Assembly: GCA_015075375.1 (NCBI GenBank)
Contig: JABTUM010000002.1
Coordinates: forward strand, 853,393-917,392
Origin: Planctomycetota bacterium
Lineage (GTDB): Bacteria; Planctomycetota; SZUA-567; H5-PLA8
Length of the DNA: 64,000 nt
Direction of reading: 5' to 3'
Shown here: in pieces, positions 5,505 through 34,077 of the stretch
How positions within the stretch are numbered: position 1 is the first letter of the stretch
How the letters are laid out: each line of letters starts with the position of its first letter
The notes under the pieces: generated by a model
What the model saw: only the letters and a program-made list of their open reading frames with translations
Databases searched by the model: none
Told to the model about the DNA's origin: nothing
Position numbers and translations under genes: made by a program

Positions 5505-5562
5505 CTGCACACTCCCAGGTTGATCCCGCCGCGGCCGCCTAGCTTTCCCATCCCGCGGGCAC

Positions 5563-5590
5563 AAAAAAAGCCCTGAGGATCGCTCAGGGC
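5563..5590 (-). terminator. Intrinsic terminator (attenuator) in the DAHP synthase leader, reading on the minus strand as GCCCTGAG-cgatc-CTCAGGGC followed by TTTTTTT.
   Basis: It has an 8-bp GC stem, a 5-nt loop and a 7-U tract. It lies 60 nt upstream of the aroG-type ATG and downstream of the leader uORF. Confidence 0.6.
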
Positions 5591-5820: not shown

Positions 5821-8800
5821 CTATTCGCCCTTCAGCTTCTTCAGTTCCTGCTCGATCTTGCGCTTCTTGATCGGGTTCTTCTCGTTCGCCAAGGCCGCTT
5901 CCAACTCCTTGATCTTCTCGGCGTTGGCGCCGGCGCTGGCTTCCTTGATCTTCTTCTCCAGATCCTCGATGTCCTTCTGGATCTTGCGCTTCTTGATCGG
6001 GTTCTTTTCCTTCTCCAGGTCGGCCTTCAACGCTTCCAGCTTCGCTTCCAGTTCGGCCGTACCGCCGCCCGCGGCCTTCATCTCCAGCGGCTCGCCCGGG
6101 GGCTCGTTGGCGACGGAGAAGAACTGGCCGTCGAGCATGTACATCGCCTCCATTTCCTTCTTGTTGAAGGGCCGCGAACCGACGCGGTTGAAGACGCTGA
6201 GCTGATTGCCGCTCTCGTCCACCGCACGGTCGCGCTGGAGGCCTTCGCTGATGTTCAGCGCCACGCCCGGCAGGTCCTTCTTGGCGATGAGGAACGGCTT
6301 CGGTTCCGGCGACCAGCCTTCGAAGTTGGGTACCGTTTCGGGCGAGGTGAGCTGCACCACCGCCAGCCCGCGCTTACCGTTGGCCAGGTAGGCGAAGGAA
6401 GAGGTGTTGGTCATGCCCAGCTTCACGTCGCGGACGTCGTTCAGCCAGCCGTCGCCCGTGAACTTGGTGAAGAGCTTCGGCGCTTCGGCGTGTTCGATGT
6501 CCACGATCGCCAGACCTTCCGCGCCCGCCGCCACGTAGGCGTACGTGCGCGCCAAGTACAGGCTGTGCGCGTTCTGGAACGGCACCGTCGCGCCTTCGAC
6601 CAGCCGAGGTTTGTCGGGGTGCGTGATGTCGATCACCTTCAGGCCGTCGGCGTCCAGCACGAAGGCGTAGCGGAACTGGATGCGTACCGCGCGCGGCTTG
6701 TTCAGCGGCACCACGCTCAGCACCTTCAGTTCGTCCGGATTCGGCGCGCGCGCCTCCTCCACGACCTTCTTGATCTCCAGCTTCTTCTTGCCGTCCGGAT
6801 TCATCTTCAGCGCCGCTTCCACCAGCTCGGTGCCGATCTTGCTGATGTCCACGCAGACCAGGCCCGCATCGCTGCAGACCCACAAATTGGTCCCGGCCAC
6901 GATCCCGTGCGTGGAGCCCGTGAGCACCCCGTTGGGATTGAAGGTCAGATGGCGTTCGAGGAAGTTGTTCGTCGGATCGCCGTCCAGCAGCGTCGCGGCG
7001 TTGATCGTGAAGAGCCCTTCCTCGCGGTCCAGACAGTACAGGAACGCGTAGATCGGATGGATGCCCTGCTCCTGGTTCAACGGATCGCGGGGCATGAACG
7101 GAACCTGCCGCGTCGGGTCGACGCCCAGGACCGTCGGGCTGATCACCTGCGTGCAGTCCTTCGACTTCACGTACATGCGCTGGCCCAGCGGGCTGACCGG
7201 CGCGGTGCTGATGCGCTGGCTGAAGCCCTTGTTGTCGATGTTCGCGACGTCGTAGATCGTCACGCCGCCGCCCCCGCGCGCCGCGTACAGATATTCGCCG
7301 CGGAGCTGGAGCTGCTTCACCGTGCCGTACTTGCCGTACTCGTGTTCCAGCGACATGTCGCGCTCCAAGTGCTCGGCGTAGCGCTCGCGGAACGCGTCGC
7401 GGTGCAGCGTGCTGCCAATCACCGCTTGCGGCTCATCCTGTTCCGTCACCACCACCGCATGCGTGCCGCCGTCGTCACAGGCCACATAGACGTAGCGGTA
7501 CATGAAGTTGGTCGTGTTCGTGCCCAGCATCAGGACCTGCGACATCCAGGCGTTGTTGTCGCCGGCCTTGCTGACGTGGCAGTCGACGCACATCTTGGTT
7601 TCGCCGGCCCCGCGCACCGCGTGCGGATAGTGCGGGCTGAACGCCTGGCCGCTGAAGCCTTCGGCGCTGACCGTCTGCTGCTGGCTGTAGATCCACTCGC
7701 GCTGAGCGTTCTGCGAACCGACGATCACGGCGCAGGCCGAGCGGACCGGGGCGACCTTGTTGCCCTTGACCGTGCCGTCCAGACCCAGCATGAAGACGTC
7801 GCCGCGCAGCGTCTGCCAGTTGTACTGCGTCCAGTTGCGGCTGTGCGCGCCTTCGTAGTGGATGTTGTCGCGGTTCTGGTTCGCGCGCATCGGCAAGTGA
7901 CAGCCGAAGCACGAAGCCATCCACGACGTATGGCAGGTGTAACAGTCCATCTTCTCGGTCTTGTGCGCCAGGACGCTGGGGTCTTCCGGCACGTCGCCCC
8001 AAGTTTTGTTGTCCTTGCGCATCGTCTTGGCCAAGCGCGCCTTTTCGTTGTAGTGCGGATTGCCCGGGGTGATCGTGTCGATCACCTGCGGCACTTCCCA
8101 CTTCACGTTGGCGTCGACGGCCGACTGCTGCATCAACTTCCCGCCCAGCACGCGGAAGCGCTTGCCGAATGGCGTATTGCTCGCCGCCAAGTCCGTGCCG
8201 CCTTCCGGCGCCGCGTTGCCCGTCGTCTTCAGCGTCGCGCGCTTGTAGATCGTTCCGTGGCAGTCCGCGCAGGTGATTTCCGTCGCGTTGCGGACCTCGG
8301 TGTACAATAAGCCGTTGCCGTGGTTGTCGATGTTGAAGTGACAGTCGATGCAGTGCATCCCCTTCTCGAGGTGGATGTCCTGCATGTGCACGGCCGAGCC
8401 CGCGAGCGGCTCACCCTTTTCGCCCTTCTTGAATTTATTGGGCGCATCGTGCGCAACCTGCTTGCCGTCCTTGTCCAACAGGTTGCCCTTGCGGTCCATC
8501 TTATAAACGTTTTTATAGAGCCAGCCGTGGCCGTGGTAGTCGGCGAACTGGATCTGCTTGAACTGGTCGTTGCGTTCCCAGACCGACTCCATCCACTCCA
8601 CATCGCCCCAGCGCCCGCGCAGCGCCGCCGCTTCCGGATTGCGGTACTTGATCTTCAGCTCTTCGCGCTCCGACATGTTCGGCAGGTGGCTGTCGAGGTA
8701 CGTCTTGCTGCCTTCGGTCTCGTTGTCGTACCAGGTGTTGCCGTAGTAAGTGACCGTCACCGTCGTGCCGGGGTGCATATGGCAGACAACGCACTGGCTG

Positions 8801-10206
8801 GACGGGATCGAGCGCGTGAAGACGTGTTTGATCGGGTGCCCGCTCGACTTGCCCTTCTCGACCACTTCGCCCTTATCGTTTTCCTTGCCCGCGACGTGGG
8901 CCAGCGTGGCGTCCTTGCTGAAGGAATGCCCGCTCTTGCCGTATTTCGCGTACGGACCGCTGTGCGACGGATCGCGGTCGTTGGCGTAGATGACGTGGCA
9001 GGAACTGCAGCCCGAGCTGCGGTAGTCGCCGGCCTGATCGTTGGTGCCCGGGTGCCAGAGAATCGGGTCGAGCAGGCGCGTCTTCTGCAGGCCCAGGAAG
9101 ACCGGGTCGGTGCTCAGCAAGGTGCCGAAACCGCGGATCGAGAGCTTCAATTCCGGCTTGCCGCTCTCGTCGATTTCCACCTTGCCGGGCGTGATCTGCC
9201 CGATGGGCTGCGCCGTCTCGAGCAGCACGCGGCCGCCGCGCTCGAAGGCGCGCAGCACGTTGCCCGATTGGGTGATGTTGTAGCGCGGCAGCGGGTCCAG
9301 GTACGGCAGGATGCCGCGGTTCTTGATGTCGTCGTTCGTCGGGCGGAAGACTTCCCACTTGCCCGAGTCTTTGTTCTGCTTGAGCGACTGGATCCGCGCG
9401 GGCTTGCCGTCCCACATGTACGCTTCGCCGTAGCGGCCGTACTTCTGGTTGCTCGCGCCGTTGTTGTACAGCGCGGCGTTCCAGAGCATGCCGCCGTGCG
9501 CCATCATGCTGGTGCTAACGCGTTCGAAGTAGCCCGGATGGCAGCCGCCGCAGGTGAACTTCGCCACGCGCAGGTCGCCGGGGTTGATGAAGCGGATGAA
9601 TTCAGGGTCTTCCTTCATCCAGACCGCGCCGGTCCGCTTCGGCCAGGCGCTGGGGTGCTGCCCGCCGTGCGCGCCATGCGAACCGTGGGAACCGTGTGCC
9701 GCCGGCGTATCGCCGTGCGCCGCACCGTGAGCTTCTTCGGTCTTGGCGTGTTCGCCATGTGCATCGCCGGTTTTGGCGGCATGATCGGCCGGAGCCGCGT
9801 GCGCGGCCGGTTCGGCGTGAGCGCTGCCGTGGTCGTCGTGCTTCGGACCGACCAGCCCATGGTGGCCGATGTGGTACCACGGACCGCGGGCCTGTACGTG
9901 GGCTTCTTCCTTTGTCGTTGCCTGCCCGTTGCCGCCGTGGCAGTCGGCGCAGCCGATCTTGACCGCCTCGGACGCGTGCATGCTCGGGTTTTCGATCCCG
10001 ACGTGGCAACTCATACAGCCGGCGGACTTCTTGAGCACGTCTTCGTCGGATTGCGTCGTGGGAACGGACGTCATCCGGGGTTCGGGCGGGAAGTCCGAGC
10101 CTTTATCGTAGTACAAGTCGGCCGGGTGGTCACAACCCGTGCCCAAGGCCAACGCCGCCAGAAGCAGCGAGCCGCCCAACCAGGAAAGTTTGCGCATCCG
10201 TCCCAT
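5821..10206 (-). CDS. Decaheme c-type cytochrome lipoprotein fused to an LVIVD-repeat beta-propeller, with a C-terminal Lys-rich coiled-coil tail.
   Basis: It has a lipoprotein signal peptide (LLLAALALGTGC). Ten CxxCH motifs are present (CMSCH, CADCH, CGGCH, CSSCH, CVVCH, CIDCH, CADCH, CYTCH, CFGCH, CVDCH). LVIVD-type repeats follow (VTIYDVANID, LVCVDISK, LKVIDITHPDKP, LAIVDIEHAEAPK, LAVVQLTSPE). The tail contains a duplicated EKNPIKKRKI motif. Confidence 0.8.
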   Translation of the reverse strand: MGRMRKLSWLGGSLLLAALALGTGCDHPADLYYDKGSDFPPEPRMTSVPTTQSDEDVLKKSAGCMSCHVGIENPSMHASEAVKIGCADCHGGNGQATTKEEAHVQARGPWYHIGHHGLVGPKHDDHGSAHAEPAAHAAPADHAAKTGDAHGEHAKTEEAHGAAHGDTPAAHGSHGSHGAHGGQHPSAWPKRTGAVWMKEDPEFIRFINPGDLRVAKFTCGGCHPGYFERVSTSMMAHGGMLWNAALYNNGASNQKYGRYGEAYMWDGKPARIQSLKQNKDSGKWEVFRPTNDDIKNRGILPYLDPLPRYNITQSGNVLRAFERGGRVLLETAQPIGQITPGKVEIDESGKPELKLSIRGFGTLLSTDPVFLGLQKTRLLDPILWHPGTNDQAGDYRSSGCSSCHVIYANDRDPSHSGPYAKYGKSGHSFSKDATLAHVAGKENDKGEVVEKGKSSGHPIKHVFTRSIPSSQCVVCHMHPGTTVTVTYYGNTWYDNETEGSKTYLDSHLPNMSEREELKIKYRNPEAAALRGRWGDVEWMESVWERNDQFKQIQFADYHGHGWLYKNVYKMDRKGNLLDKDGKQVAHDAPNKFKKGEKGEPLAGSAVHMQDIHLEKGMHCIDCHFNIDNHGNGLLYTEVRNATEITCADCHGTIYKRATLKTTGNAAPEGGTDLAASNTPFGKRFRVLGGKLMQQSAVDANVKWEVPQVIDTITPGNPHYNEKARLAKTMRKDNKTWGDVPEDPSVLAHKTEKMDCYTCHTSWMASCFGCHLPMRANQNRDNIHYEGAHSRNWTQYNWQTLRGDVFMLGLDGTVKGNKVAPVRSACAVIVGSQNAQREWIYSQQQTVSAEGFSGQAFSPHYPHAVRGAGETKMCVDCHVSKAGDNNAWMSQVLMLGTNTTNFMYRYVYVACDDGGTHAVVVTEQDEPQAVIGSTLHRDAFRERYAEHLERDMSLEHEYGKYGTVKQLQLRGEYLYAARGGGGVTIYDVANIDNKGFSQRISTAPVSPLGQRMYVKSKDCTQVISPTVLGVDPTRQVPFMPRDPLNQEQGIHPIYAFLYCLDREEGLFTINAATLLDGDPTNNFLERHLTFNPNGVLTGSTHGIVAGTNLWVCSDAGLVCVDISKIGTELVEAALKMNPDGKKKLEIKKVVEEARAPNPDELKVLSVVPLNKPRAVRIQFRYAFVLDADGLKVIDITHPDKPRLVEGATVPFQNAHSLYLARTYAYVAAGAEGLAIVDIEHAEAPKLFTKFTGDGWLNDVRDVKLGMTNTSSFAYLANGKRGLAVVQLTSPETVPNFEGWSPEPKPFLIAKKDLPGVALNISEGLQRDRAVDESGNQLSVFNRVGSRPFNKKEMEAMYMLDGQFFSVANEPPGEPLEMKAAGGGTAELEAKLEALKADLEKEKNPIKKRKIQKDIEDLEKKIKEASAGANAEKIKELEAALANEKNPIKKRKIEQELKKLKGE
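5846..6007 (-). repeat. In-frame direct DNA repeat (ATCTTGCGCTTCTTGATCGGGTTCTT, two copies) encoding the duplicated KNPIKKRKI motif.
   Basis: Two copies of about 26 bp occur at roughly 5846-5871 and 5982-6007, inside the 3' end of the decaheme CDS. Confidence 0.5.
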
Positions 10207-10253
10207 GAGTCTCGTTCCGTGTTTCGTAGCGAGGGCCTAAGTCGAAAATCCGG

Positions 10254-12293
10254 CTAGTACTTGACGATGACGTTCATGAACCCCGAAAGCTGAACGCCGC
10301 TGGTGTCGTAAATCTTCTTGTACCCATCGAAAGGCTGCAGCGCCGCGACGCCGCCGGTCAGGATGATCTGCTGGTTCAGCAGCGGGCGGTAGATCAAGCC
10401 CAAGCTGTAATCCAAGCCGATCTCCTTGCTGATTGCTTCCTGCCCCAGCAGGAATTCCAGCGAGGTGGTGTCCGCGAACTTCAGGTAGTTAATGTTCGCC
10501 ACCGCGCGCAAGCTGGGCGTCAGTTCGGCGTCGTACCCGATGTTGAACAGGTGAACACCGGGGTTGACGAAGTTGGCCTGACCTTCCTCTTTTCCCGCGC
10601 TCAGGTTTGGAATCAGCGAGTTGCGGCTCTTCAGGAGCGTGAAGGTATTGCCCGCGCCGAAGCCTTGACGCACCCAGTAGCTGAATTGCCCGCCCGCGAA
10701 CTCGGGATTCTCGAAGATCGAATCGAAACCTTCGGCCTTGTCGTCTTCCGGATCTTCATCACCACTCGAATAGAAGTAGCTCGTGCGGAAGCGCATCCAG
10801 TCCCAGTCGTAGGACAGCTCGGCCGCGAACATATGCGCCAGGATGTCCGTCTGCTGGCCGGCGATCGGATTCAGCGTGTCTTCGCCGTAGGCAAGGTAGT
10901 ACTGGTGCGAAAGATTGAAGCGGCCGATGTGCCCGTTGCCGCCGAAGCCTACGTAGCCCACCTTGTTCGAATGCGGCTGTCCGCTGCCGATCGGCGTCGG
11001 GCGAACCGGAACCCCGTTCTGGTTGAATTCCACGCTTGCTTCTTCGACGCTCAGGCCCACCTGCCCGATGATGTTGTAGCCCTTCACAAACGTGTCCTGC
11101 CGAATCAGGTTCGCCAGGAACACATGCTCGTCTTTCATCTGGAAGAGCGTGTTGAGCCCCGAGTTCGTGTCCTTATTCAGCATTTCCCAGTAGGTGAAGT
11201 TGTACTGGAGGCGATTGTTCTCGTACGTGCCGAAGAGGCGCGCGCCGAGCTGGTTGTCGGCGAAGAGGAAGCCGCGGAAGTCGTGGTTGTAGAACTGAAT
11301 GCCTGCGCGGCCCGCGATGAAGTCGTAATTCGGGCTGATGTCCACGAAATGGTATTCGCCGAACAGTTCCTGGAACGCGATCTGGTGGTCCAGGCGGTCG
11401 CGGCCTTCGCGGCTGTCGATGTTCACCGCCAGCCGTTCGTCGGTGTTGATGTAGTTGATGTTGAAGACCGGCGTCACACGGGCTTCCCAAGCGCGCGGCT
11501 TGAAGGCCGTTTCGCCGCCGAAGAACTCGACCGAAAGGAAGAAGTTCTGCTGGACGAAGGTGGCTTCCGGCGAACCGAAGAAGTCGAAACTGCCCGGGCG
11601 GAATGGCGTATTGCCCGAGGGAGTCGGGATCTCCCGGAATTCGGCCGTCGTGTCCGAGCCGGCGTTGATGACCAGGAACTTATCCTGGCCCAGGATCGGG
11701 TAATCGCCCTTCAGTACGTTCTGGCGGTAAGGATTATGCCAGGCGTTGTTGGTGACGTGCCGGGGGCTGTGAGGGAAGCCGATACCCCAGCGGTTGCCCA
11801 CCGGCAGCAGCGGCTCCTGATCGATCGCCCAGCGCGGAACTTTATTCTTTTTCCATGCCGCGCGGCCCAATTCTCCGCCTAAGCGTCCGTTGGTCGGTTC
11901 GTCCTTCTTCTCGGCGTCGTGGTAGAGGTCCACGAGTTCCGGCTCATCCGGATCCTCGCGCTTGGCCTCTGGCTTAGGTTGCTCGCCCTCGGCGGCCGCA
12001 GCCGTCTCGGCGGGCTTGGCTTCAGCCGCGGGAGCCGCCGTGCCTTCGGCGGGCTTCGCTTCGGCCGCAGGAGTCGCGGGGGCCGCGGTCCCTTCGGCGG
12101 GCTTGGGCGCCTGCCCTTCCGCGGGCTTTTCGCCTTCGCGGAAGCGCTTGTAGCGCTCTTCTTCCGTTTCGGGCTTCGCTTCGGCTTCGCCGGCGCAGCA
12201 CCGCTGAGAGCCCAAGCCGGCGACCGTCGCAAGCAGCAGCACCCAGGAGGATAGAATGAGTCCGAGTGGGATTTTCACACGTGCAAGGTACAT
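10254..12293 (-). CDS. Putative outer-membrane beta-barrel (porin-like) protein with an N-terminal Ala/Pro/Glu/Lys-rich linker.
   Basis: It has a signal peptide (LILSSWVLLLATVAGLG) and 87 aa of AEAKPAEGTAAP-type repeats. A roughly 550-aa region with alternating hydrophobic/aromatic beta-strand patterns (YNFTYWEM, FNLSHQYYLAYG, LSYDWDWMRFRTSYFY) ends in an aromatic residue (...NVIVKY). No enzyme motif was seen. It sits directly upstream of, and co-oriented with, the decaheme lipoprotein. Confidence 0.45.
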   Translation of the reverse strand: MYLARVKIPLGLILSSWVLLLATVAGLGSQRCCAGEAEAKPETEEERYKRFREGEKPAEGQAPKPAEGTAAPATPAAEAKPAEGTAAPAAEAKPAETAAAAEGEQPKPEAKREDPDEPELVDLYHDAEKKDEPTNGRLGGELGRAAWKKNKVPRWAIDQEPLLPVGNRWGIGFPHSPRHVTNNAWHNPYRQNVLKGDYPILGQDKFLVINAGSDTTAEFREIPTPSGNTPFRPGSFDFFGSPEATFVQQNFFLSVEFFGGETAFKPRAWEARVTPVFNINYINTDERLAVNIDSREGRDRLDHQIAFQELFGEYHFVDISPNYDFIAGRAGIQFYNHDFRGFLFADNQLGARLFGTYENNRLQYNFTYWEMLNKDTNSGLNTLFQMKDEHVFLANLIRQDTFVKGYNIIGQVGLSVEEASVEFNQNGVPVRPTPIGSGQPHSNKVGYVGFGGNGHIGRFNLSHQYYLAYGEDTLNPIAGQQTDILAHMFAAELSYDWDWMRFRTSYFYSSGDEDPEDDKAEGFDSIFENPEFAGGQFSYWVRQGFGAGNTFTLLKSRNSLIPNLSAGKEEGQANFVNPGVHLFNIGYDAELTPSLRAVANINYLKFADTTSLEFLLGQEAISKEIGLDYSLGLIYRPLLNQQIILTGGVAALQPFDGYKKIYDTSGVQLSGFMNVIVKY
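11990..12130 (-). repeat. Coding low-complexity tandem repeat (KPAEGTAAPAxPAAEA) in the beta-barrel gene linker.
   Basis: Visible as repeated GGCGGGCTTCGCTTCGGCCGC-type units in the DNA and as repeats in the translation. Confidence 0.5.
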
Positions 12294-12525
12294 GAGTGTA
12301 CGAACCGCCCCCCAAGGCTAGTTGGTCCAGCCAGAAGGCCATATTTCAGGCGCGAAGGTTCACAGTCTGGTAACGAGGCATTCGTTTACCATAGTTCAAG
12401 CACGAGGGCAACGGAAAATAGCGTTTTTGGGTTGCCTGCACATGCGCTTGTGCTATGGTCCCGTCATCAACTTTGAAGCTGTTTGCGCGGGGCCATTCCC
12501 ACTGCGGGATACAAGGAGTTTTACC

Positions 12526-14721: not shown

Positions 14722-14751
14722 GTCCACCCCATTCCTGCACCTGCCTTTCCA

Positions 14752-14785
14752 GACGGCAGCGTGGTCCGCAAGGCCCGCTGCCGTC
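14752..14785 (+). terminator. Terminator-like hairpin with a 10-bp stem (GACGGCAGCG...CGCTGCCGTC) after the DUF336 gene.
   Basis: It is a perfect 10-bp inverted repeat with a 14-nt loop, 30 nt after the TAA stop, followed by a T-rich stretch (TTTCCTGTGCTTT). Confidence 0.4.
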
Positions 14786-14955
14786 TGGCATTTCCTGTGC
14801 TTTGGTAAGGGTTTGGAGTACCATACTGCCGCCTGAGGATGCACCGGAATTCGGCATGTTGCTTGGGGATTCATTGATGGCCGCGGCCACCTCGGCGCGT
14901 CTTTTGGGGACAGTCTTACGCGAGAGCTGCTGAGCAGCTCGAATTGGGAACCGGC

Positions 14956-16953: not shown

Positions 16954-16954
16954 A

Positions 16955-19009
16955 ATGATGACGAATGTGAAGCAAGTGTGGAGCCTGTGGGCGGCGGCGT
17001 TGCTGCTGGCCTTCAGCGCGGGCATGGCTTGGGCCGGCGAGGACCCGCACGGCGGCACGATCGATCCGCACGGGAAACTGGCCGATCCGCATGCCGGGCA
17101 CAACCACGGGTCCGATCCGCACGGCGCGCCGGCCGCCAACGAGGAACCCGAAGAGAAGCTCCCGCCGGCGGTGCTGGAAGGCGAACTGGATTTCCGCGCC
17201 ATCGAGAGCTTGGCGATTCAGGAAGGCGGCCGCAAGAAGCCGCTGCATACGTACGCCGTCGAAAGCCTGGAGCAGATCTGCGGGCGCTCCATCGCGCTGA
17301 TCAACAGCGCGCCGACCTTCAAAGACCCCTCCACCGGCGCTCCGCGCGAAGCCATCGACCTGTTCCTGGCCATGTGGCTCAATACGAGGCAGTGGTACAA
17401 AGAGCCCGTCGTGCTCGTTTCGCACCGTCCGCTGCGCGTCGAACTGGGACTCGATCCGGCCAAGAAGCATTTTTCCATCCAGCAGCTCATCGAGAATGAG
17501 GCGTTCAACAAGCTGTACGGGGAGGCCCTCGCCAAGCGCCACGCCGAGAAGGAAAAAGAGATGTCGGCGCTTGAGCAAGAAGCCGAACTGGTGGGCGCGC
17601 GGCTGGAATTGATGCGCAAGATCGTGACCGGGGAGGCCGTGCATATCGTCCCCCACCCCGCCGATCCGGACGGCACCTGGATCAGCCTGCGCGAGTTCCG
17701 TGCGATCGAGCAGAATCCGCCGCAGGCCACCGAGATCGTCGCGCAGCAGCGCTACAGCGGGAACGCCGAATTGGCTCAGAAGCTGGTGATGGATTACGCG
17801 AACAATTACAGCGAGGACCAGCTCTTCGCGCTCAACGATAAAGCCAAGCAATTCATGCTCGCCTACCGTGCGCGCGACAAGGAAGCCTTCTCCAAGACCG
17901 CCGCGGATCTGCGTACCTCGCTGGCCTCGATGAGCCCCGGCGTGTACCCCGACCAGACGGCGCTTTTACGCGAAATTCGCTTTAACGAAGCGCGCCCCTT
18001 CGGCAGCGCGTGGCGCTGGTACGTGATCGCCGCCATCGTCTGTTCCGTGGCCTTGAAGTTCGCCAACAGACCCTTCTACCTGGGTGCATGGGGCTGCTTC
18101 GTTCTGGGATTGGGTTACCACGTGTGGGGCTTCACCCAACGCTGCTTGATCGCGGGCCGTCCGCCGGTGACGAACATGTACGAATCGGTGATCTGGGTCG
18201 GCTTCGGATGCGTCGCGTTCGCGCTGGCCTTCGAAGCGATTTACCGGACCCGGTACTACCTCCTCGGCGGTGCGCTGGGCGGGTTCCTGTGCCTGATGCT
18301 GATGGATCTGGTGCCCTATTTCGCCGGGAATGCGCATCTGCCGGGCTTCGAGGCGAAGATCAACCCGCTCGTCCCGGTGCTGCGCGATAACTTCTGGCTC
18401 ACCGTCCACGTGCTCACCATCACCGCCAGCTACGCCGCCTTTGCGCTGGCTTGGCTGATCGCCCACGTGACGCTGGGCTCGTACATCGTCAATCCCGGCG
18501 CTCAGATCCGCCACCGCCAGTTGCATGGCTTCGTCTACCGAGTCGTGCAAGTCGGCGTGTTGCTCCTGGCCACCGGAACCATCCTGGGCGGCGTCTGGGC
18601 GTACTATTCCTGGGGCCGATTCTGGGGCTGGGACCCCAAGGAGACCTGGGCCTTCATCGCGCTGCTGTGCTACCTGGTCTTCTTACACGGGCGCTTTACC
18701 GGCTGGTGGGGCAACTTCGGGCTCAGCGTCGGAGCGGTGGTCAGCTTCGTTTCGGTGGTGATGGCCTGGTACGGCGTGAATTTCGTCCTGGGCTCGGGCC
18801 TGCACAGCTACGGCGCCGGCGCCAACATGGGCCAGCAATACGTCTTCGGACTGGTCTGCTTGGACCTGCTTTTCGTCACCGTGGCGATCTGGCGCAACTA
18901 CGCCTTCCGGCACGACTCCAACGCCGAAGAACCCGATGCCGACGCGGAAGAGAAGCTCACCGCCACCGACCCCATCGACGAAGAGCTGGAAGTCACCGCC
19001 AAAGCGTAA
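16955..19009 (+). CDS. ccsA: Cytochrome c biogenesis heme exporter CcsA/ResC with a roughly 300-aa N-terminal periplasmic extension.
   Basis: ATG at 16955 with a CAAGGAAG RBS. It has a signal peptide, then four DPH(G/A) repeats, then the CcsA core with the WWD signature (WGRFWGWDPKETWAFI). Confidence 0.8.
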   Translation: MMTNVKQVWSLWAAALLLAFSAGMAWAGEDPHGGTIDPHGKLADPHAGHNHGSDPHGAPAANEEPEEKLPPAVLEGELDFRAIESLAIQEGGRKKPLHTYAVESLEQICGRSIALINSAPTFKDPSTGAPREAIDLFLAMWLNTRQWYKEPVVLVSHRPLRVELGLDPAKKHFSIQQLIENEAFNKLYGEALAKRHAEKEKEMSALEQEAELVGARLELMRKIVTGEAVHIVPHPADPDGTWISLREFRAIEQNPPQATEIVAQQRYSGNAELAQKLVMDYANNYSEDQLFALNDKAKQFMLAYRARDKEAFSKTAADLRTSLASMSPGVYPDQTALLREIRFNEARPFGSAWRWYVIAAIVCSVALKFANRPFYLGAWGCFVLGLGYHVWGFTQRCLIAGRPPVTNMYESVIWVGFGCVAFALAFEAIYRTRYYLLGGALGGFLCLMLMDLVPYFAGNAHLPGFEAKINPLVPVLRDNFWLTVHVLTITASYAAFALAWLIAHVTLGSYIVNPGAQIRHRQLHGFVYRVVQVGVLLLATGTILGGVWAYYSWGRFWGWDPKETWAFIALLCYLVFLHGRFTGWWGNFGLSVGAVVSFVSVVMAWYGVNFVLGSGLHSYGAGANMGQQYVFGLVCLDLLFVTVAIWRNYAFRHDSNAEEPDADAEEKLTATDPIDEELEVTAKA

Positions 19010-19115
19010 GGACCGGTTTCCGTTCGCCAGTTCGTAGTTTCCAAGTCACGCCAAGCGCGTCGCAAGCGGCTGCGCGCCACCCGTGTAGCCGTTGGCTGCC
19101 AACTGGAAGCAAGCT

Positions 19116-19868
19116 TTACTCAAGCGCTTGGCGAACCGCCTCTGGCCATATCGTCCCCACATCGCCTTCCAGCCGCAGGGTCACGCAGGCTTCGCCATCT
19201 TGGTCGGTCGGGCCTTGGTTGACGATGACGTAAGGCACACCGCGTCTGGCCGCGGCCAGCGGAATCCCGGCGGCCGGATGAACCGATAGCGTACTGCCCA
19301 GCGCCACGCACAGGTCGCAGCGCCGAGCCGCCTCGTACGCGTTCAAAAGGTCTTCTTCGCGCAGGGACTGCCCAAAGCTGACCGTCGCCGACTTGAGCCA
19401 CCCGCCGCAGGCGCAGACGGGCGGCGTGCGCGTGCGCGCGAAGGCTTCGAAGTGCGCGGCCGGCGCGCTGCGCGCTTTGCAGGTCTGGCATTCGACTTCG
19501 GTAGCCGTGCCGTGGACTTCGACCAGCGCTTCCCGCGGCAACCCCGCCGCCTGATGCAAGCCGTCGATGTTCTGCGTGACGCAACGCTCGAGCTTGCCCG
19601 CCGCGTGCAGTTCGGCGACGGCCCGGTGCGCCGCATTGGGTCGCGCCTTCGAAAAGGCCTCGAAAGCGTGCAGCTTCTGGCCCCAGTACTCCACCCGGGC
19701 GGCGTGGTCGGTCATGAAGTCCTGATAGTAGACGGGCTGGAACGTCTTCCAGACGCCTTGCGGCCCGCGGAAATCCGGGATGCCGCTGCCGGTGGAGATG
19801 CCCGCGCCGGTAAAGACGAGGATCCTGCGCGCGGCGCGAAGCAGGTCGGCGAATCGACCGCTTTCCAT
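19116..19868 (-). CDS. cobB: NAD-dependent protein deacylase (Sir2/CobB family).
   Basis: It has the Rossmann motif FTGAGIST, the TQNIDGLH motif and the CxxC...CxxC zinc site. The start is trimmed to the ATG at 19868 (MESGRFADLL...). Confidence 0.8.
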   Translation of the reverse strand: MESGRFADLLRAARRILVFTGAGISTGSGIPDFRGPQGVWKTFQPVYYQDFMTDHAARVEYWGQKLHAFEAFSKARPNAAHRAVAELHAAGKLERCVTQNIDGLHQAAGLPREALVEVHGTATEVECQTCKARSAPAAHFEAFARTRTPPVCACGGWLKSATVSFGQSLREEDLLNAYEAARRCDLCVALGSTLSVHPAAGIPLAAARRGVPYVIVNQGPTDQDGEACVTLRLEGDVGTIWPEAVRQALE

Positions 19869-19971
19869 AGGCCCTCGATTCTTGCGCCTACCGCTTGGGC
19901 TTCCGCCCCACCCGTTCGTTCCCGGCTTCGTGGCGGTCCCGATGCCCCTGGGCGCCCGGCCTGGGCCCATG

Positions 19972-20000
19972 AAAAAGCCCCGCTCGCAGGCGGGGCTTTT
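19972..20000 (-). terminator. Bidirectional intrinsic terminator (AGCCCCGC-tcgcag-GCGGGGCT) flanked by A and T runs.
   Basis: It has an 8-bp GC stem. The minus strand has TTTTT after the stem, downstream of the tetraheme gene stop at 20026. Confidence 0.6.
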
Positions 20001-20025
20001 CCAAAAGGTTCGTCTACCGGCTTCG

Positions 20026-21726
20026 CTACTTGCCGGCTTCCTTCATGATCTTCTCGATGTCCGGCAGGCCGTGGCCGCAGCGGACACAGTACTTGTAGTC
20101 CTTCGGCCATTTCACGCCGCATTCCGGACAGAAGACGAACTTACCCCATTCTTCCTTGGTCAGCGGCGCGCGCTTGGACGGATCTTCCTGGGCGGGCGGC
20201 GGCGTCGATTCGACCTTGGGCGGCGTGGCCGCAGGAGCCTCGGTCTTGGCTTCGACCTTCGGGGCTTCGGTCTTCGCTTCGGGAGCCGCGGCCGGAGCTT
20301 CGGTCTTCGCTTCGACCTTGGGCTCTTCGGTCTTGGCCGCGGGCGGCGGTTCGGGCGTCTTGGCTTCGGCAACGGCCGGAGCGGAGGCCGCGCCGCCGCC
20401 GGGGCCGCCCGGAGGCAGCGGAATCGCCGTCCCGCCCTTGAAGGTGTCCACGAGCGTCTTCGCCACGGGGATAAACTTCTTCTTGTCGAAGTCCTCGCGC
20501 GTGGCGAGCACTTCGTAAAGCTTGTCCATCGTCGCCTGCCGCGCGTCGGCGTCGCCCTTGCCTTCCTTGTCCAGAACCATCGAGAGCGAGGTGAGGGACA
20601 AGACAAGCTGCTCTGCGGCGCGGAAGCCGACGTTGCCGCAAGCTTCGCCTTCGGCGGCGATGCCCGAACGCCACTTGGTCGTCACTTCTTCGCTGAAAGT
20701 GAACTTGTCCACGGCATCGGCCAGCGCTTCCGCCGTTTTGGCCATTTCCTTCAGGGCCCCGGCGGCCTTGGCCGGATCGGTCCAGCCGTCGTGCGCCGCC
20801 TTGAGGTGTTTGTCCAGCTCGTCGAGCTTGGCCTTATCGACCAGCGCCGCGACGTGGCGCGTCATCAGCGCATGCGCGGCCAACTGGTAGTAGCTGTCCA
20901 CGACCAGGTCTTCGCGCGCCTTTTGCTCCAAGCGCCCGGCAAGCTGATACGCCGATTCGCGCAGCGCGACCGTCTGGCCCATCGCCCACGCTTTGGTCCC
21001 CGACCACGGCGTCTTGTCGCGCCAGTGGATCCAGGCTTCGTCCGAACTGAAAACGTGCAACTCGAAGGGAAGCTCGGGGTGGCCGGCCTGAATCAGTTCG
21101 GAGCTGATCTGCAAGTGGCAGGAGATGCACTGGTTGGCGCGGAACTTCATGTTCTTCGTGTCGTACAGCCCCCATTCGTCGTAGAGCTTCTGGGCGCCTA
21201 ATTCTTTGCGCAGCTTATCGGTCCAGCCCTTTTCGGTGTGCGCTTTGAGGTACTTGTCGGCCGGGCCGTGGCAGCTATCGCAGCTCACCCCGTCCTCGAT
21301 GCTGTATCCCTTGGCCTGAATGTCCTCGGGCTTGAGCACGATGCGCTTAGAGCCGTTGGCCAGGTGCAAACCGGACAGCGCATGGCAGTCGATGCACTTC
21401 TCGCTCTTCGTCGGATCCGGAATGTTCAGCTTCTTGGCTAGGTCCTTGGAAACATCGTTGGAGAGCGAGGTATAGGCCTTGGCATGCTTATCGTTGTTCG
21501 ACCAGACGTGATTTTCGTTGTGCCGGGTGGCGCCGCCCTCTTTGGGCGTCGCCGAACCGTGGCAGGCCGCCGCGCTGCACGCGCCCGCTCCGGTGTATTT
21601 GATCCCCTGCGGATCGGCCAGAACTTCGCTTTCCAAGCCGGTCCAATCGCTGAACGCCGCCAGCAGCGCCCCCAGCAGCACGACGGCGCCGATGGTAGCC
21701 CACTTTACCCGTGCACGAATCGCCAT
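20026..21726 (-). CDS. Membrane-anchored tetraheme c-type cytochrome with a TEA/AKTE-repeat linker and a C-terminal double zinc ribbon.
   Basis: It has an N-terminal hydrophobic anchor and four CxxCH motifs (CSAAACH, CIDCH, CDSCH, CISCH). A low-complexity AKTEAPKVEAKTEAP linker follows. The C-terminus is FCPECG...YCVRCG. Confidence 0.75.
   Translation of the reverse strand: MAIRARVKWATIGAVVLLGALLAAFSDWTGLESEVLADPQGIKYTGAGACSAAACHGSATPKEGGATRHNENHVWSNNDKHAKAYTSLSNDVSKDLAKKLNIPDPTKSEKCIDCHALSGLHLANGSKRIVLKPEDIQAKGYSIEDGVSCDSCHGPADKYLKAHTEKGWTDKLRKELGAQKLYDEWGLYDTKNMKFRANQCISCHLQISSELIQAGHPELPFELHVFSSDEAWIHWRDKTPWSGTKAWAMGQTVALRESAYQLAGRLEQKAREDLVVDSYYQLAAHALMTRHVAALVDKAKLDELDKHLKAAHDGWTDPAKAAGALKEMAKTAEALADAVDKFTFSEEVTTKWRSGIAAEGEACGNVGFRAAEQLVLSLTSLSMVLDKEGKGDADARQATMDKLYEVLATREDFDKKKFIPVAKTLVDTFKGGTAIPLPPGGPGGGAASAPAVAEAKTPEPPPAAKTEEPKVEAKTEAPAAAPEAKTEAPKVEAKTEAPAATPPKVESTPPPAQEDPSKRAPLTKEEWGKFVFCPECGVKWPKDYKYCVRCGHGLPDIEKIMKEAGK
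20205..20345 (-). repeat. Coding tandem repeat (AKTEAP/KVE units) in the tetraheme gene linker.
   Basis: Repeated CTTCGGTCTTCGCTTCG-type units appear in the DNA and as repeats in the translation. Confidence 0.5.
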
Positions 21727-21822
21727 GGCCTCGGACGCTCCCTAAAAGTTCGCACTCGAACCGGCTGTGCGCCGGCCCCCTGAAGGGCTGGACGCCTCGG
21801 CCGGAGGCTTATTCAGTTCCGG

Positions 21823-23586
21823 CTACTGCTGCAACTGCGTTCCGCAGCGCGAGCAGAACTTCGTCTTGCCCGGCCAGCGCAGACTGCAATTGGGACAAAG
21901 GATCGAGTTGCCCGCCTGAACGCCCACGCCTTCGGTTTTGGCCGGCGCGGCGGCAGGAGTTTCGGTCTTGGCGGCTTCCGTTTTGGCAGCTTCGGTCTTG
22001 GCTGCGGGAGCCGTTTCCGTCTTGGCGGCTTCGGTCTTCGCCGCGGGCGCTTCTTCGGTCTTGGCCTCCGTCTTGGCAGCCGGTTCGGGCTCGCCGCCGC
22101 CTACGTCGCGCGAGACGATCTTGCCCGCTGGGACGCCGCCCATATCCGTCCCTTGTTCCAGTTCCAGAATGGTGCGCATGCCGATGAAATTCGAGAAGGA
22201 CTTGTCGTGATACAGATGGCATTCCACGCAGCCCGACCGGGCGCCGCCCTGCGGCGAGTGGCACTTGAGGCACTTATCGCGGCTGGGGATCAGAATATCC
22301 GCCGTCGTGGTGCTTTGCGCCGCTTGCACGTGGCATTCGGTGCATTGGAGCACGCGATGGCTCTCGTGGTCGAAGAAGACGCTCTTGGGCGACTTGGCAT
22401 GCGCCGGATTGCGCGGGAACCAGCTTCGCGGCACCTGCGGATCGACGTACAGAGGCAATTCGGTACCGGGAACCTTTCCGTTCACTTCATGGCAGTACGC
22501 GCACGTGCCGCCGTCCTTGAACATCGGCTCAAGAGTGGCCTTCACGTTTTCGTTGAGCCATTCTTCGACCGGGCGGTCGTCCGGCGACTCGACGAACTCG
22601 GGCTCCGTGGGCTTCTGTCCCGGGCGCGGCTTCTTGTACTTGGGATTCTTGACCTTCTTGGGCGGCAGCTTCCCGCCGGATTTGATCAGGTAGTCCTTGA
22701 AGGCCGCGCCGACCTTGGCCGCGACGAGGTCCGACTGCGCGTGCGGCAGCGGCACGTCGCCGATGTTCGCGATCGGCGCAAGCTGCAGCGGGTGGCACAT
22801 CTGGCAGTGCATCTCGAAGTTCACCGGCGCCATGTAGGCGCGCTGCGTATCGGGCGCGTGGCAGTCGAAGCAGTCCAGCGTCGCGCCGGCCACTTTCTTA
22901 AAGCCCGCTTCCAGGCCCATGCGCTGCTTGATCTGGTCGTCCGACCACTTCACTTCCATATGCGCCTTGTGGTTGTACTTCAGCGGCGTCGTGTCCTTCT
23001 CCTTATCGGTGAACATGCGGAATTCGGGGTGGCCGTCTAGGGTCCCAAAGTCGGTTACCTTCGCGAAGAACTTCGCTCCGCCATCGGAGACTTGCAGGTT
23101 TTCGTGGCACTGCGTGCAATGGCGGTCGGCCGTTGCGGCGAGTTCGGCATGGCCCTTGTGCTCGACGTGGCAGCTCGCACAGGTGGCCGTCTGGACCTGC
23201 ACGGGTTTGCCGCCGCGCATCACGGTCATCGTGTGCCCGCCGGGATGGACCATGTTGAGATGGTGGGCCGGACCGTCGTGGCAGCTCAGGCATTTCGCGT
23301 CGGTTACTTTACCCCAGCCGTTGGGGCCGCTTTCGTGGCATTCGATGCAGCGATGCCCGAAAATCGCGTGCTTGCTGCTCACCGGGCCGGGCAAGTACAC
23401 GTTATCGCCGGTCTTGGTGTAGAGCAGCGCCGCCATGCCCAACCCCGCCGCCAGGAAGAGCAGCCAGTTGAGCGTTTTGTACATGCTGCGCCACGGATGC
23501 GGACGCGCGTGGTAGCTGCGGTCCACTCGTTGCGCGCGGGCCTTCTGCTGCGTCGTCAGCTTATCGGCGGTTACGTCTCGGGACAT
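21823..23586 (-). CDS. Membrane-anchored decaheme c-type cytochrome with an AKTE-repeat linker and a C-terminal double zinc ribbon.
   Basis: A 37-aa N-terminal tail is followed by a transmembrane helix (NWLLFLAAGLGMAALLY). Ten CxxCH motifs are present. A linker reads AAKTEAAKTETAPAAKTE... The C-terminus is LCPNCS...FCSRCG. Confidence 0.8.
   Translation of the reverse strand: MSRDVTADKLTTQQKARAQRVDRSYHARPHPWRSMYKTLNWLLFLAAGLGMAALLYTKTGDNVYLPGPVSSKHAIFGHRCIECHESGPNGWGKVTDAKCLSCHDGPAHHLNMVHPGGHTMTVMRGGKPVQVQTATCASCHVEHKGHAELAATADRHCTQCHENLQVSDGGAKFFAKVTDFGTLDGHPEFRMFTDKEKDTTPLKYNHKAHMEVKWSDDQIKQRMGLEAGFKKVAGATLDCFDCHAPDTQRAYMAPVNFEMHCQMCHPLQLAPIANIGDVPLPHAQSDLVAAKVGAAFKDYLIKSGGKLPPKKVKNPKYKKPRPGQKPTEPEFVESPDDRPVEEWLNENVKATLEPMFKDGGTCAYCHEVNGKVPGTELPLYVDPQVPRSWFPRNPAHAKSPKSVFFDHESHRVLQCTECHVQAAQSTTTADILIPSRDKCLKCHSPQGGARSGCVECHLYHDKSFSNFIGMRTILELEQGTDMGGVPAGKIVSRDVGGGEPEPAAKTEAKTEEAPAAKTEAAKTETAPAAKTEAAKTEAAKTETPAAAPAKTEGVGVQAGNSILCPNCSLRWPGKTKFCSRCGTQLQQ
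21925..22090 (-). repeat. Coding tandem repeat (AAKTE units) in the decaheme gene linker.
   Basis: Repeated GGTCTTGGCGGCTTCGGT-type units appear in the DNA. Confidence 0.5.
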
Positions 23587-23631
23587 GCCTCACCTCGGGA
23601 TTCATGGTCCTGCGCGCAAAGCTGCCACCGC

Positions 23632-24594
23632 TTAGTAGTAGAACGTCGCCTTCACGGCATGGAACGCCGAAAGCACCAGCAGCGCGTACGAGAGCGGCGC
23701 GTGCAGGAAGAGCCAGCAGTGAAGCCAGAAATGCAGGCGCTCCTGGAGTTTCAACTGGCGCCGTTCTTCGCAGATCGATTCCAGGTCGCGCAACGGCTCG
23801 TGCAGTGCTGCCGGCAGCAGCGTGCGCGTATGCTCGAAGAGCGCCATGCTGCTCTGCGGTATCGCCAGCTTCGTTTCTTCGGAGTACTCGCGGCCCAGGA
23901 ACGGGCGGATCACTTCGAGGTAAAACGCCTTGAGCGGCCCGCTGCCTTCCACCGGTCCGCCCGACCCGCCGCCACGGGCATGCGCCACGCGGCCCTTCAC
24001 GGCGCCTTGCGTGCGCACCGTTCCGGACATGCCGCCCGGCATTCGGTCCGCATCCTCGGGTTCCGCCGATTCCACGCCCAGCGGCCCGCAGAAGTTCCCC
24101 ACCAGCCGGTCGGCTTCGCGCCGCAGCGTCTCGATCACCTGCGGAATCTGCTCGAACGTGCTCTCCGCGGGTAACCGGTCCAGCATCGTCCGCGGGACCA
24201 GATTCTGCATGACGATCCCGAAGATGCCGCTGACGAGGACGATCGTAAAGAGGACCATCAGCCAGAAGCTGACGCCGTTTCCGAACTTCATTCCGGCGTG
24301 GAAAAGGATCAGCGGATAGGCCAGCAGACCCAGCCAGATGTGCGCCCGCAGCCAGCCTTGCACGCGCCCCAGCCGCCAGATGCGGAAGTGCTTACGCACC
24401 CCCAGCAAGCCGCAGAAGATCATCATCGAGTACCCGATGATGCCGAAGGTCAGCCCCGACCAACTGCCGCCGGACGGGCCGTTACCCCCGCCGCGGTAAG
24501 CGGCTTGGCTGTAGAACGTGTAGTAAGCGGCGGCCACGACGAAAGCGACGACCGTGAACGTAATCCAACTGCGATGGCTCTTATCGATGAGCAC
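23632..24594 (-). CDS. Polytopic membrane protein with conserved His in its transmembrane helices, possibly a b-type heme/quinol-interacting anchor. It is the first gene of the cytochrome operon.
   Basis: GTG start with a GGGGAG RBS. It has at least five predicted transmembrane helices with His in TM3 and TM5 (LAYPLILFHAG, HFWLHCWLFLHAPLSYALLVLSAFHAV). No recognisable enzyme motif was seen. Confidence 0.45.
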   Translation of the reverse strand: MLIDKSHRSWITFTVVAFVVAAAYYTFYSQAAYRGGGNGPSGGSWSGLTFGIIGYSMMIFCGLLGVRKHFRIWRLGRVQGWLRAHIWLGLLAYPLILFHAGMKFGNGVSFWLMVLFTIVLVSGIFGIVMQNLVPRTMLDRLPAESTFEQIPQVIETLRREADRLVGNFCGPLGVESAEPEDADRMPGGMSGTVRTQGAVKGRVAHARGGGSGGPVEGSGPLKAFYLEVIRPFLGREYSEETKLAIPQSSMALFEHTRTLLPAALHEPLRDLESICEERRQLKLQERLHFWLHCWLFLHAPLSYALLVLSAFHAVKATFYY

Positions 24595-24813
24595 CGGAAG
24601 CTCTCCCCTGACTAAGCTCCTGCTCGTGACCCCGGCACCGGCGGCTTAGCACCTCAGGCTGGCGTAGACTCCACTTCGAGCCGACACAAATCGCCCTGAG
24701 GCCCTCACTTCGGGCGGTGCAATAGGGCATGCGCATTGAGATGTTCAGACTCTAGCGGCCTCCTGGGGTTTGCGTCAAGAAAAACACCGATAAAGGCCGT
24801 CCATATAAAGACT

Positions 24814-33303: not shown

Positions 33304-33518
33304 GCTTCGTCCAAGGTGCGTCGTTTAGGAAGCTCAAGGTGCAGCTTTCTGATCCTACGATCAATAGGTGTAACGAACAAGCCCCAATATCCGGCACGCA
33401 AAAAACTCCTAACTGTAGTCAGAACACAGATCTACTGAATTACTTTACTGTTAGCAGAATGAAAAAGTGAAAGACTTGATCCGAAAATCATAGAACGGTT
33501 GTTCTGTAAATAGATACA

Positions 33519-33550
33519 GAGCTCCTCCCGCCTTTACTTGGCGGGCAGGA
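33519..33550 (-). terminator. Imperfect hairpin (CTCCTCCCGCC...GGCGGGCAGGAG) downstream of the Rieske gene.
   Basis: The 11-bp stem has one bulge. It lies in an AT-richer intergenic region with only a weak T-tract. Confidence 0.3.
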
Positions 33551-33594
33551 GAAATCCATCCGCGTAAATCTATAACCTTAATAATTATAATATG

Positions 33595-33966: not shown

Positions 33967-34077
33967 GCTGGGGGCCTTTCGTTCTGAACAATGCGCGTAC
34001 GGTTCTAAAGCTCGATTTTGAGCCTCTAAGCGTTATGGGCGGGCTTTGGAAGTACCTCTCACGGTTTTGGAAACGGC

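Follow-up and report, generated by a model that had tools for sequence, protein, structure and literature searches.

We report that an 18.7-kb region (positions 5821-24594) in a 64,000-nucleotide stretch of contig JABTUM010000002.1 from a Planctomycetota bacterium (the whole stretch is referred to as the window) carries two gene blocks that, with the balance of evidence tipping modestly in favour, encode an electron-transfer chain of the Ptd/PCC4 type spanning the cell envelope. Block A consists of the genes for an outer-membrane barrel, for a large multihaem cytochrome (MHC; a decahaem-LVIVD lipoprotein) and, divergent from the barrel gene, for a DUF336 protein. Block B comprises the genes for a polytopic inner-membrane protein (IMP), an anchored decahaem cytochrome and a c554-like tetrahaem cytochrome, in this order. 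Together they are a reduced copy of a 24-haem gene set that is very widespread. In the proposed chain electrons would cross the inner membrane via two b-haems bound to paired HX13H motifs of the ferric-reductase-like IMP, be taken over by the membrane-anchored, wire-like decahaem and be relayed across the periplasm by the tetrahaem; the chain would end at the decahaem/β-propeller lipoprotein working together with the 18-strand barrel, where the terminal redox reaction would take place.

The genes listed for this region in a first-pass annotation were all recovered at the same coordinates and on the same strands, and its count of 24 haem sites in three multihaem cytochromes also holds. Specifically, the MHC (1461 aa; 5821-10206, minus strand) has ten CXXCH motifs together with LVIVD repeats (motif count and Pfam), the anchored decahaem (587 aa; 21823-23586, minus strand) has ten CXXCH motifs, and the tetrahaem (566 aa; 20026-21726, minus strand) has three CXXCH motifs and one CX4CH (10 + 10 + 4). 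Since residue shuffles gave between 0.007 and 0.05 motifs per protein, with a maximum of two, these motifs cannot be due to chance, and elsewhere in the window, among reading frames of 80 codons or more, just one further frame has a CXXCH, a single one. The remaining genes of the two blocks encode the barrel (679 aa; 10254-12293, minus strand), the IMP (320 aa; 23632-24594, minus strand; identified by conserved motifs and transmembrane helices) and the secreted HbpS-like/DUF336 protein (731 aa; 12526-14721, plus strand).

Co-occurrence of these genes was counted in the 80 best MHC loci, 43 of which had full 10-kb flanks. The barrel accompanies the MHC in all 43 full-flank loci and the DUF336 protein in 38 of them (54 of the 80), while the IMP or the decahaem is present in 26 of the 43 (IMP in 31 and decahaem in 30 of the 80) and the tetrahaem in 18 of the 43 (25 of the 80). 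At least one block-B gene lies within 10 kb of the MHC gene in 30 of the 43 full-flank loci. The loci represent Acidobacteriota, Planctomycetota, Verrucomicrobiota, Methylomirabilota, a metagenome-assembled genome (MAG) labelled 'delta proteobacterium', Armatimonadota (Fervidibacter) and, via a separate look-up, Binatia; the association of A with B recurs across several of these phyla in differing gene orders and orientations. In the Binatia MAG all parts stand in one compact cluster, where the barrel-MHC pair is divergent from the genes for NuoEF, a NuoG-like/cyclic nucleotide (cNMP)-binding/ferredoxin (Fd) protein, IMP, decahaem and DUF336. Because the co-occurrence spans at least six phyla we consider that the two blocks form one system, and the earlier proposal that the components belong together, for which co-occurrence in relatives had been set as the test beforehand, survived it.

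The compact arrangement seen in the window is a local one. The closest relative (GCA_027493525.1; 77-78% protein identity) has the two blocks on one contig, separated by approximately 115 kb, in the strings ccsA-resB-DUF336 / barrel-MHC-DAHP-argH and folC-ferredoxin-IMP-decahaem-tetrahaem-Sir2, and the 18.7-kb unit of the window thus represents a juxtaposition of two blocks. This separation, with the internal order and the flanking genes unchanged, would fit a chance neighbourhood in which A and B are functionally unrelated and were joined by a rearrangement in this lineage; the proximity of block-B genes to the MHC gene in several phyla and in different orientations makes this very improbable. 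The first-pass annotation had called the region an island, a label that is not justified since its GC content (0.60-0.665) is similar to that of the remaining window, its flanks are housekeeping genes (argH, DAHP synthase and folC), and neither tRNA genes nor Rfam matches were found in the 64 kb. On the ordinary composition and the housekeeping flanks we reject the view that it was acquired horizontally as an island. The identical gene string is present on several metagenome contigs. Moreover, relative to the closest relative the ratio of nonsynonymous to synonymous substitutions (dN/dS) is 0.22-0.39 for all cluster genes (0.22-0.35 for IMP, decahaem, tetrahaem, barrel and MHC), and since this resembles the flanking housekeeping genes (0.29 for folC and 0.18 for the DAHP synthase gene) the cluster genes are kept by purifying selection.

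The IMP has five transmembrane (TM) helices and a loop of approximately 150 residues predicted to be cytoplasmic. As scored in 24 homologues, the invariant W, H and G residues form the motifs W81x3H85x13H99 on TM3, G123xxG126 on TM4 and W294x3H298x13H312 on TM5, and TM4 reads S122-G123-x-x-G126 (SGXXG). Weak matches to PF01794 (Ferric_reduct) or DUF4405 were obtained for 14 of the 24 homologues (best E 1.4e-4), and the IMP of the window itself gave no match to the Ferric_reduct or DUF4405 Pfam models. We therefore refer to it as a ferric-reductase-like, putative dihaem-b protein on the strength of its motif pattern. The same motif set was used by He et al. 2017 (PMC5566968) to define the 'IMP' of the hypothetical PCC3 and PCC4 clusters, which they relate to the ferric reductase domain (FRD), where four His bind two b-haems. 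In NOX/FRE and MsrQ proteins, paired HX13H motifs on TM3 and TM5 hold two stacked b-haems, which pass electrons from a reductant in the cytoplasm to the membrane's outer face, as those of the IMP would do; the IMP differs from these in having five TM helices with a 150-residue cytoplasmic loop and no fused FAD/NADPH domain, in that its acceptor would be a decahaem c-type cytochrome, and in that the Pfam similarity is weak.

The decahaem gene starts 45 nt downstream of the IMP gene, and it is found immediately 3' of it in about 30 related loci. Its product has one N-terminal TM helix followed by an NrfH-like part with the first four haems (residues 62-165 align to NrfH, 2j7a, E 5e-4), a density of approximately 41 residues per haem as expected of a wire-like protein, and a C-terminal linker with a zinc ribbon; set beside the NapC/NirT/NrfH quinol dehydrogenases, in which one N-terminal TM helix is combined with a quinol-oxidising tetrahaem domain, the first motif is without the CXXCHxM of NrfH haem 1, there are six further haems, and the protein is paired with the IMP. 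The tetrahaem begins with an anchor or signal and ends in a zinc ribbon, with a helical domain and an AKTEA-type linker between them. It matches Cytochrome_C554 (E 4e-7) and PDB entry 1bvb (E 1.5e-4), and its CX4CH is conserved in all aligned homologues. Both periplasmic cytochromes thus end in an Ala/Lys/Thr/Glu-rich 'AKTEA' repeat linker and a CxxC...CxxC zinc ribbon (20026-20150 and 21823-21950), and since neither has a further TM helix the ribbons would lie in the periplasm. Their Acidobacteriota homologues are about 100 residues shorter, and in the closest relative the tetrahaem zinc ribbon was called as a separate 99-aa gene (locus L088, 14402-14701).

Two hypothetical clusters reported in the literature resemble block B. 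PCC4 comprises a porin, periplasmic cytochromes with 4, 5 and 10 haems, an IMP whose gene has a pfam13247 Fe-S gene upstream of it, and other redox genes, and was found in Zetaproteobacteria, Hyphomicrobium and some Planctomycetes (PMC5566968). The ptdABCDEFG cluster of marine Alpha- and Gammaproteobacteria, Nitrospirales and Planctomycetes encodes a pentahaem cytochrome of the NrfA COG with a β-sandwich (PtdA), a porin (PtdB), an FAD/NAD(P) oxidoreductase (PtdC), a tetrahaem (PtdD), a cNMP-binding 2x[4Fe-4S] protein (PtdE), a protein resembling ferric reductases (PtdF) and a decahaem (PtdG; bioRxiv 10.1101/2023.11.21.568154). PCC4 and ptdABCDEFG are probably the same cluster type. The IMP of the window resembles PtdF (approximately 300 aa, five TM helices, WX3HX13H on TM3 and TM5, SGXXG on TM4), the decahaem directly follows it as PtdG does, and the tetrahaem, c554-like by its own match, occupies a PtdD-like position, so that by motifs and architecture block B appears to correspond to PtdF-PtdG-PtdD. 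Furthermore, a barrel is encoded next to the terminal cytochrome and may, by architecture, be the counterpart of the porin PtdB, and in relatives of the window a cNMP-binding 2x[4Fe-4S] protein upstream of the IMP resembles PtdE while a Pyr_redox_2 FAD/NAD(P) oxidoreductase is probably PtdC-like.

There are also differences. The terminal cytochrome here is a decahaem of 1250-1460 aa with an LVIVD β-propeller, whereas PtdA is a pentahaem with a β-sandwich; the DUF336 protein is an addition, as are NuoEF and a NuoG-like N-terminus in many relatives; most hosts are Acidobacteriota from soil and not Proteobacteria and Nitrospirales from the sea; and the window is without equivalents of PtdC and PtdE. 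The system had been put forward as an undescribed one: this no longer applies to the inner module, which matches the hypothetical PCC4/ptd clusters, while for the outer module (decahaem-LVIVD cytochrome, barrel and DUF336 protein) our literature searches found no description. The inner module also seems to combine with different outer modules, because in a Planctomycetota MAG (L089, 1-5807) an operon for NuoEF, NuoG/cNMP/Fd, IMP and decahaem adjoins genes for two NHL-repeat proteins of more than 940 aa, and its neighbours are not the LVIVD cytochrome and the barrel.

The likely source of the electrons emerges from the relatives. Directly 5' of the IMP gene, 31 of 33 related loci encode a 2x[4Fe-4S] ferredoxin domain, whose identity is 60-70% across most of the Acidobacteriota and several further phyla and lower in some lineages. 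It usually forms the C-terminus of a 720-900-aa protein in which a NuoG-like N-terminus ([2Fe-2S] and NADH-G 4Fe-4S) is followed by three cNMP-binding domains and the ferredoxin, and in 16 loci the gene for this protein is preceded by one for a fused NuoE/NuoF flavoprotein; in one locus (L016) NuoEF, NuoG/cNMP/Fd, IMP and decahaem form a tight operon. A Pyr_redox_2 flavoprotein gene adjoins the cluster in 14 loci and in the closest relative. In addition, a CHASE2 adenylate/guanylate cyclase gene adjoins it in 12 loci of several phyla, often with one for a FecR-domain protein; these loci include L010 (2519-5673), L016, L018, L020, L027, L055, L074 and L078. The combination of the CHASE2 cyclase with a cNMP-binding Fe-S protein suggests a sensor-cyclase-cNMP switch on the electron flow. 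We infer that the IMP takes up electrons at its cytoplasmic face from an Fe-S chain that oxidises NADH and is controlled by cNMP, and that quinol oxidation is not its function, or not its sole one. The inner-membrane part had earlier been taken for a quinol-oxidising module, which in view of the ferredoxin domain and its usual NuoG-like, cNMP-binding or NuoEF partners is not the best reading and is probably wrong for the family.

Because the IMP of the relatives is paired with a cytoplasmic donor module, and given the membrane potential, the ancestral flow would most likely be outward, from NADH to the envelope, independent of quinones and regulated by cNMP, as in a two-membrane version of the NOX/FRE ferric reductases. 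As the terminal substrate our best guess would be an oxidant, for example Fe(III), Mn(IV) or humics, that is extracellular or delivered by the barrel. The opposite direction also has to be weighed: extracellular Fe(II), Mn(II) or reduced humics might be oxidised at the barrel and MHC, with the electrons passing inward via tetrahaem and decahaem to an IMP that reduces quinone, the direction originally suggested for PCC4. PCC4 was found in Fe(II)-oxidising Zetaproteobacteria and in Hyphomicrobium, with its IMP proposed to be a quinone-active cytochrome b (PMC5566968), the window copy is without a cytoplasmic Fe-S partner gene, aerobic soil lineages (for example Pyrinomonadaceae and Blastocatellia) commonly carry the family, and a small barrel with a small haem module inside would recall Cyc2. 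Nevertheless, low-potential partners such as the ferredoxin domain of the 31 loci, and often NuoEF, make no sense as acceptors of electrons from Fe(II), inward transfer would oppose the membrane potential (established bioenergetics), and no Cyc2-like or MtoA-like model matched; we regard electron uptake as improbable.

At the outer end of the proposed chain, the MHC (NCBI HS116_16445, 100% identity) has an N-terminal lipoprotein-type signal up to Cys24 and an LVIVD match with E 2.6e-11. All ten haem sites are kept in 119 homologues, with haem 3 being CXXCH or CX4CH, and 13 non-motif His are conserved as well; about 30% of the alignment columns are at least 95% conserved, and identity to homologues across phyla is about 50-58%. 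Features confined to Planctomycetota are a His-rich insert (approximately residues 113-185) and a C-terminal KNPIKKRK coiled-coil tail. At the C-terminus (window 5821-6100), in the predicted coiled-coil tail, there are two copies of a charged repeat, EKEKNPIKKRKIQ and NEKNPIKKRKIE. The lipobox Cys is present in the Planctomycetota proteins, and many Acidobacteriota members are without it. The MHC would be located at the outer membrane. One Acidobacteriota homologue (P0037) ends in a hydrophobic helix and an Arg/Lys tail and is annotated as 'LPXTG-motif cell wall-anchored protein', which may indicate cell-surface sorting in that lineage.

The MHC family is very large and unnamed. It has more than 7,600 matching proteins at E<=1e-5 and 754 matching cluster representatives at E<=1e-30, and in a one-genome-per-species collection at least 591 stretches were confirmed by tblastn. 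The hosts of the best 80 loci are mostly Acidobacteriota and mostly from soil, the others being Planctomycetota, Verrucomicrobiota, Methylomirabilota, Armatimonadota (Fervidibacter), MAGs labelled Deltaproteobacteria, Dormibacterota and others. Searches of the literature for LVIVD together with cytochrome returned nothing on this family. A preprint on peat (10.64898/2026.05.27.727921) describes an Acidobacteriota 'porin-scaffold-cytochrome' cluster (EET1), found with a selection procedure that favoured compact, haem-dense cytochromes, and this cluster may or may not overlap with the MHC family; the 'Candidatus Acidoferrum' paper gave no cluster detail.

The barrel gene lies 47 nt upstream of the MHC gene, and directly upstream of it in 75 of the 80 related loci. 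The protein has a signal peptide and an Ala/Pro/Glu/Lys-rich linker, no CXXCH, and no match among the Pfam families. AlphaFold2 predicts a barrel of 18 long strands (residues 200-679, mostly pLDDT 80-97), in line with the earlier assignment as an outer-membrane barrel. Among PDB folds the alginate exporter AlgE ranks first (E 1e-16, TM-score 0.7), followed by porins with 16 to 18 strands, and MtrB is not among the best 50 fold matches; our literature searches for alginate export combined with multihaem proteins found nothing. MtrB has 26 strands. With 18 modelled strands and its likeness to AlgE, the barrel is unlikely to enclose a decahaem as a sheath of the MtrAB type. The trans-envelope conduit with a porin-cytochrome outer module that had been suggested is accordingly retained as a conserved, conduit-like gene set, whereas a sheath of the MtrAB kind is not.

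None of the region's proteins matched family models for Mtr (including MtrB_PioB and MtrA), MtoA, Pcc or Cyc2, which bears out the view that the components are unlike these canonical systems. A barrel gene adjoining that of a decahaem lipoprotein, and a multihaem relay from the inner membrane, are common to MtrCAB, PioAB and MtoAB; here the barrel is of the 18-strand AlgE-like type, no MtrA-type cytochrome is encoded beside it, and entry at the inner membrane would be through an FRD-like b-type cytochrome and not CymA. Cyc2 is a single polypeptide with an N-terminal monohaem part and a 16-strand barrel, whereas cytochrome and barrel are separate genes here. The Geobacter ExtHIJKL(M-S) cluster likewise combines a mid-sized porin (ExtI) with multihaem cytochromes, and MHC residues 608-880 weakly match the ExtM model (E 1.5e-28; 99.5 bits, far below the cut-off of 800); the selenocysteine, rhodanese and Rieske/cytochrome b (ExtOP) components of Ext are all missing here. 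In Desulfovibrio ferrophilus (DFE_0448-0451/0461-0465) and in the Tenderiales uet cluster β-propeller proteins are also encoded together with outer-membrane multihaem cytochromes, and these NHL propellers are proposed to stabilise the complexes; here the cytochrome is itself fused to the propeller, an LVIVD-type one, and a true β-barrel is also present. The PCC of Verrucomicrobia (PMC5615132) pairs a porin, for which at least 20 transmembrane motifs are predicted, with an octahaem of the periplasm and is not the same system.

The main competitor for the outer end, possible though on the unlikely side, is that the MHC is not an extracellular conduit but a periplasmic reductase (or oxidase) acting on something soluble, for instance peroxide, a metal oxyanion, a nitrogen oxide or a sulfur species, that would enter through the barrel as its substrate channel; the chain would be unchanged up to the MHC. 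The barrel is of AlgE/porin and not Mtr size, the MHC is very highly conserved across phyla, and many Acidobacteriota MHCs are without the lipobox Cys. There is also a precedent for a substrate channel beside an enzyme, as ExtKL (MccSep), first placed in a candidate electron-transfer cluster with the ExtI porin, has now been shown to be a polysulfide reductase, and the authors of the ptd study raise a role in nitrogen cycling (bioRxiv 10.1101/2023.11.21.568154). In sequence searches the MHC matched nothing in PDB at E<=1, and in profile searches it gave weak matches to octahaem nitrite reductase (E 6e-4) and NrfA (E 0.07). This similarity, however, is limited to one generic dihaem module of 50 residues, and the MHC shows no CXXCK or other catalytic-haem signature, all ten sites being CXXCH or CX4CH. 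The 13 conserved non-motif His would suffice for bis-His ligation of all ten haems. The single conserved extra Cys (Cys825, RSACAV) is ruled out as a haem ligand since it is S or T in 16 of the 119 sequences, and the alignment shows no invariant His, Cys or Met in the propeller that could form a metal site.

Returning to the Ptd/PCC4-type envelope-spanning chain that we favour, several observations weigh against it. Identity of about 50% across phyla over 1200 residues is more enzyme-like than is typical of fast-evolving surface cytochromes. Of the AlphaFold2 model of the MHC (residues 186-1385, 36 sequences) the propeller is confident (pLDDT about 90), and the cytochrome domain has pLDDT <50 over long stretches and is unusable; because of this low confidence the Foldseek matches are generic propellers only. 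As modelled, the 18-strand barrel would be too small to sheath a decahaem in the way MtrB does, which leaves the passage of electrons across the outer membrane unexplained. The window has no genes for the ferredoxin, NuoEF, NuoG/cNMP, Pyr_redox_2 or CHASE2 cyclase (tblastn, 1e-6), so the NADH-fed model is borrowed from relatives. Its assignment to the Ptd/PCC4 type is drawn from motifs and architecture, with no counterparts of PtdA, PtdC and PtdE in the window, and the function of ptd itself 'remains completely unknown' according to its authors (bioRxiv 10.1101/2023.11.21.568154). The distance between the blocks in the closest relative also counts on this side.

With respect to the missing donor, in the closest relative the IMP gene is preceded, 37 nt upstream, by one for a 162-aa ferredoxin, and approximately 2 kb between folC and the IMP gene is absent in the window by comparison (window 24595-25000 versus L088 7534-9988). 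The window copy would thus have lost its adjacent Fe-S donor gene, and the entry point could be an unlinked ferredoxin or quinol. A more specific version, which is tentative and no better placed than the soluble-substrate enzyme discussed above, is that the window's gene set is a reduced version of a widespread 'two-membrane ferric reductase' that is gated by cyclic nucleotides and does not depend on quinones. There NADH would be oxidised by the NuoEF/NuoG-like flavo-Fe-S module and the electrons would pass through the FRD-like dihaem-b protein and then 14 c-type haems to an outer-membrane terminal of a new kind, where a small N-terminal dihaem segment of the MHC (residues 55-105) would plug the 18-strand barrel, like a split Cyc2.

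The genes between the blocks have a narrower distribution. The DUF336 protein, which belongs to block A, matches PF03928 (E 8e-17) and its closest solved relative is EfgA/GlcG (E 3e-6). It is followed on the plus strand by ResB/CcsB (665 aa; 14956-16953; PF05140, gene call) of System II cytochrome c maturation and CcsA (16955-19009; PF01578, E 2e-27; TIGR03144), which has a long His-rich periplasmic N-terminal extension. The terms 'haem-binder' for the DUF336 protein and 'dedicated' for CcsBA in the first-pass annotation are interpretations and not observations. Since ccsA is present in 2 of the 80 loci (1 of the 43 with full flanks) and ccsB in none of the 80, and ccsBA adjoins the cytochrome genes only in the window and the closest relative, they are not maturation genes of the system's own. 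The Sir2-family deacylase (19116-19868, minus strand; SIR2, E 6e-40, gene call; the called start, giving 250 aa, is internal) is likewise not part of the set, being found in 0 of the 80 loci; in the closest relative it also lies 3' of block B. CcsBA and the sirtuin are lineage-specific neighbours outside the conserved system.

Of the regulatory elements that had been pointed out, the terminator can be read directly from the sequence. Between the tetrahaem and sirtuin genes an intrinsic-terminator-like hairpin ends the block-B operon (19998-19972, minus strand; GCCCCGC-CTGCGA-GCGGGGC-TTTTT), with a 7-bp G+C stem, a 6-nt loop and a T run. The sigma-70-like element TTGACG-18-TAGAGT is present 5' of the IMP gene (24778-24749, minus strand), and since one match was found versus 0.9 expected from shuffles it is a pattern match only.

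Three proteins of the region have low-complexity stretches rich in His (HG, DPHG and AHG repeats) in their periplasmic parts, at approximately 9650-9870 (MHC residues 113-185), 17000-17120 (CcsA N-terminus) and approximately 16030-16080 (ResB), and these stretches may reflect metal or haem handling in this lineage. Two genes of the DAHP_synth_1 family flank the region (4428-5564 and 26301-27200), the second of which (299 aa) probably encodes a KDO8P synthase rather than a second DAHP synthase. The GC minimum of the window (0.55-0.58, at 32000-35500) is found just downstream of a gene for a 1294-aa Ser/Thr protein kinase (29419-33303), and between 33303 and 34078 the listing has no open reading frame of 200 aa or more.

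Finally, these findings join PCC4 and ptd, reported separately as hypothetical clusters, to a much larger and mainly terrestrial family, whose MHC is abundant in the dominant soil phyla yet unnamed and whose partner barrel falls outside the Pfam families. The link of NuoEF, Fe-S and cNMP-binding proteins to a ferric-reductase-like IMP suggests that electrons leave the cytoplasm bypassing the quinones. If true, such export would not conserve energy and, in phyla of aerobic soil bacteria, would fit redox balancing or the acquisition of iron or manganese by reduction rather than respiration. If cytoplasmic reducing power is exported to the cell surface, dominant phyla of soil and peat would gain a route for the reduction of iron, manganese or humics, one that marker-gene surveys for Mtr, Pcc, Omc and Cyc2 would miss.

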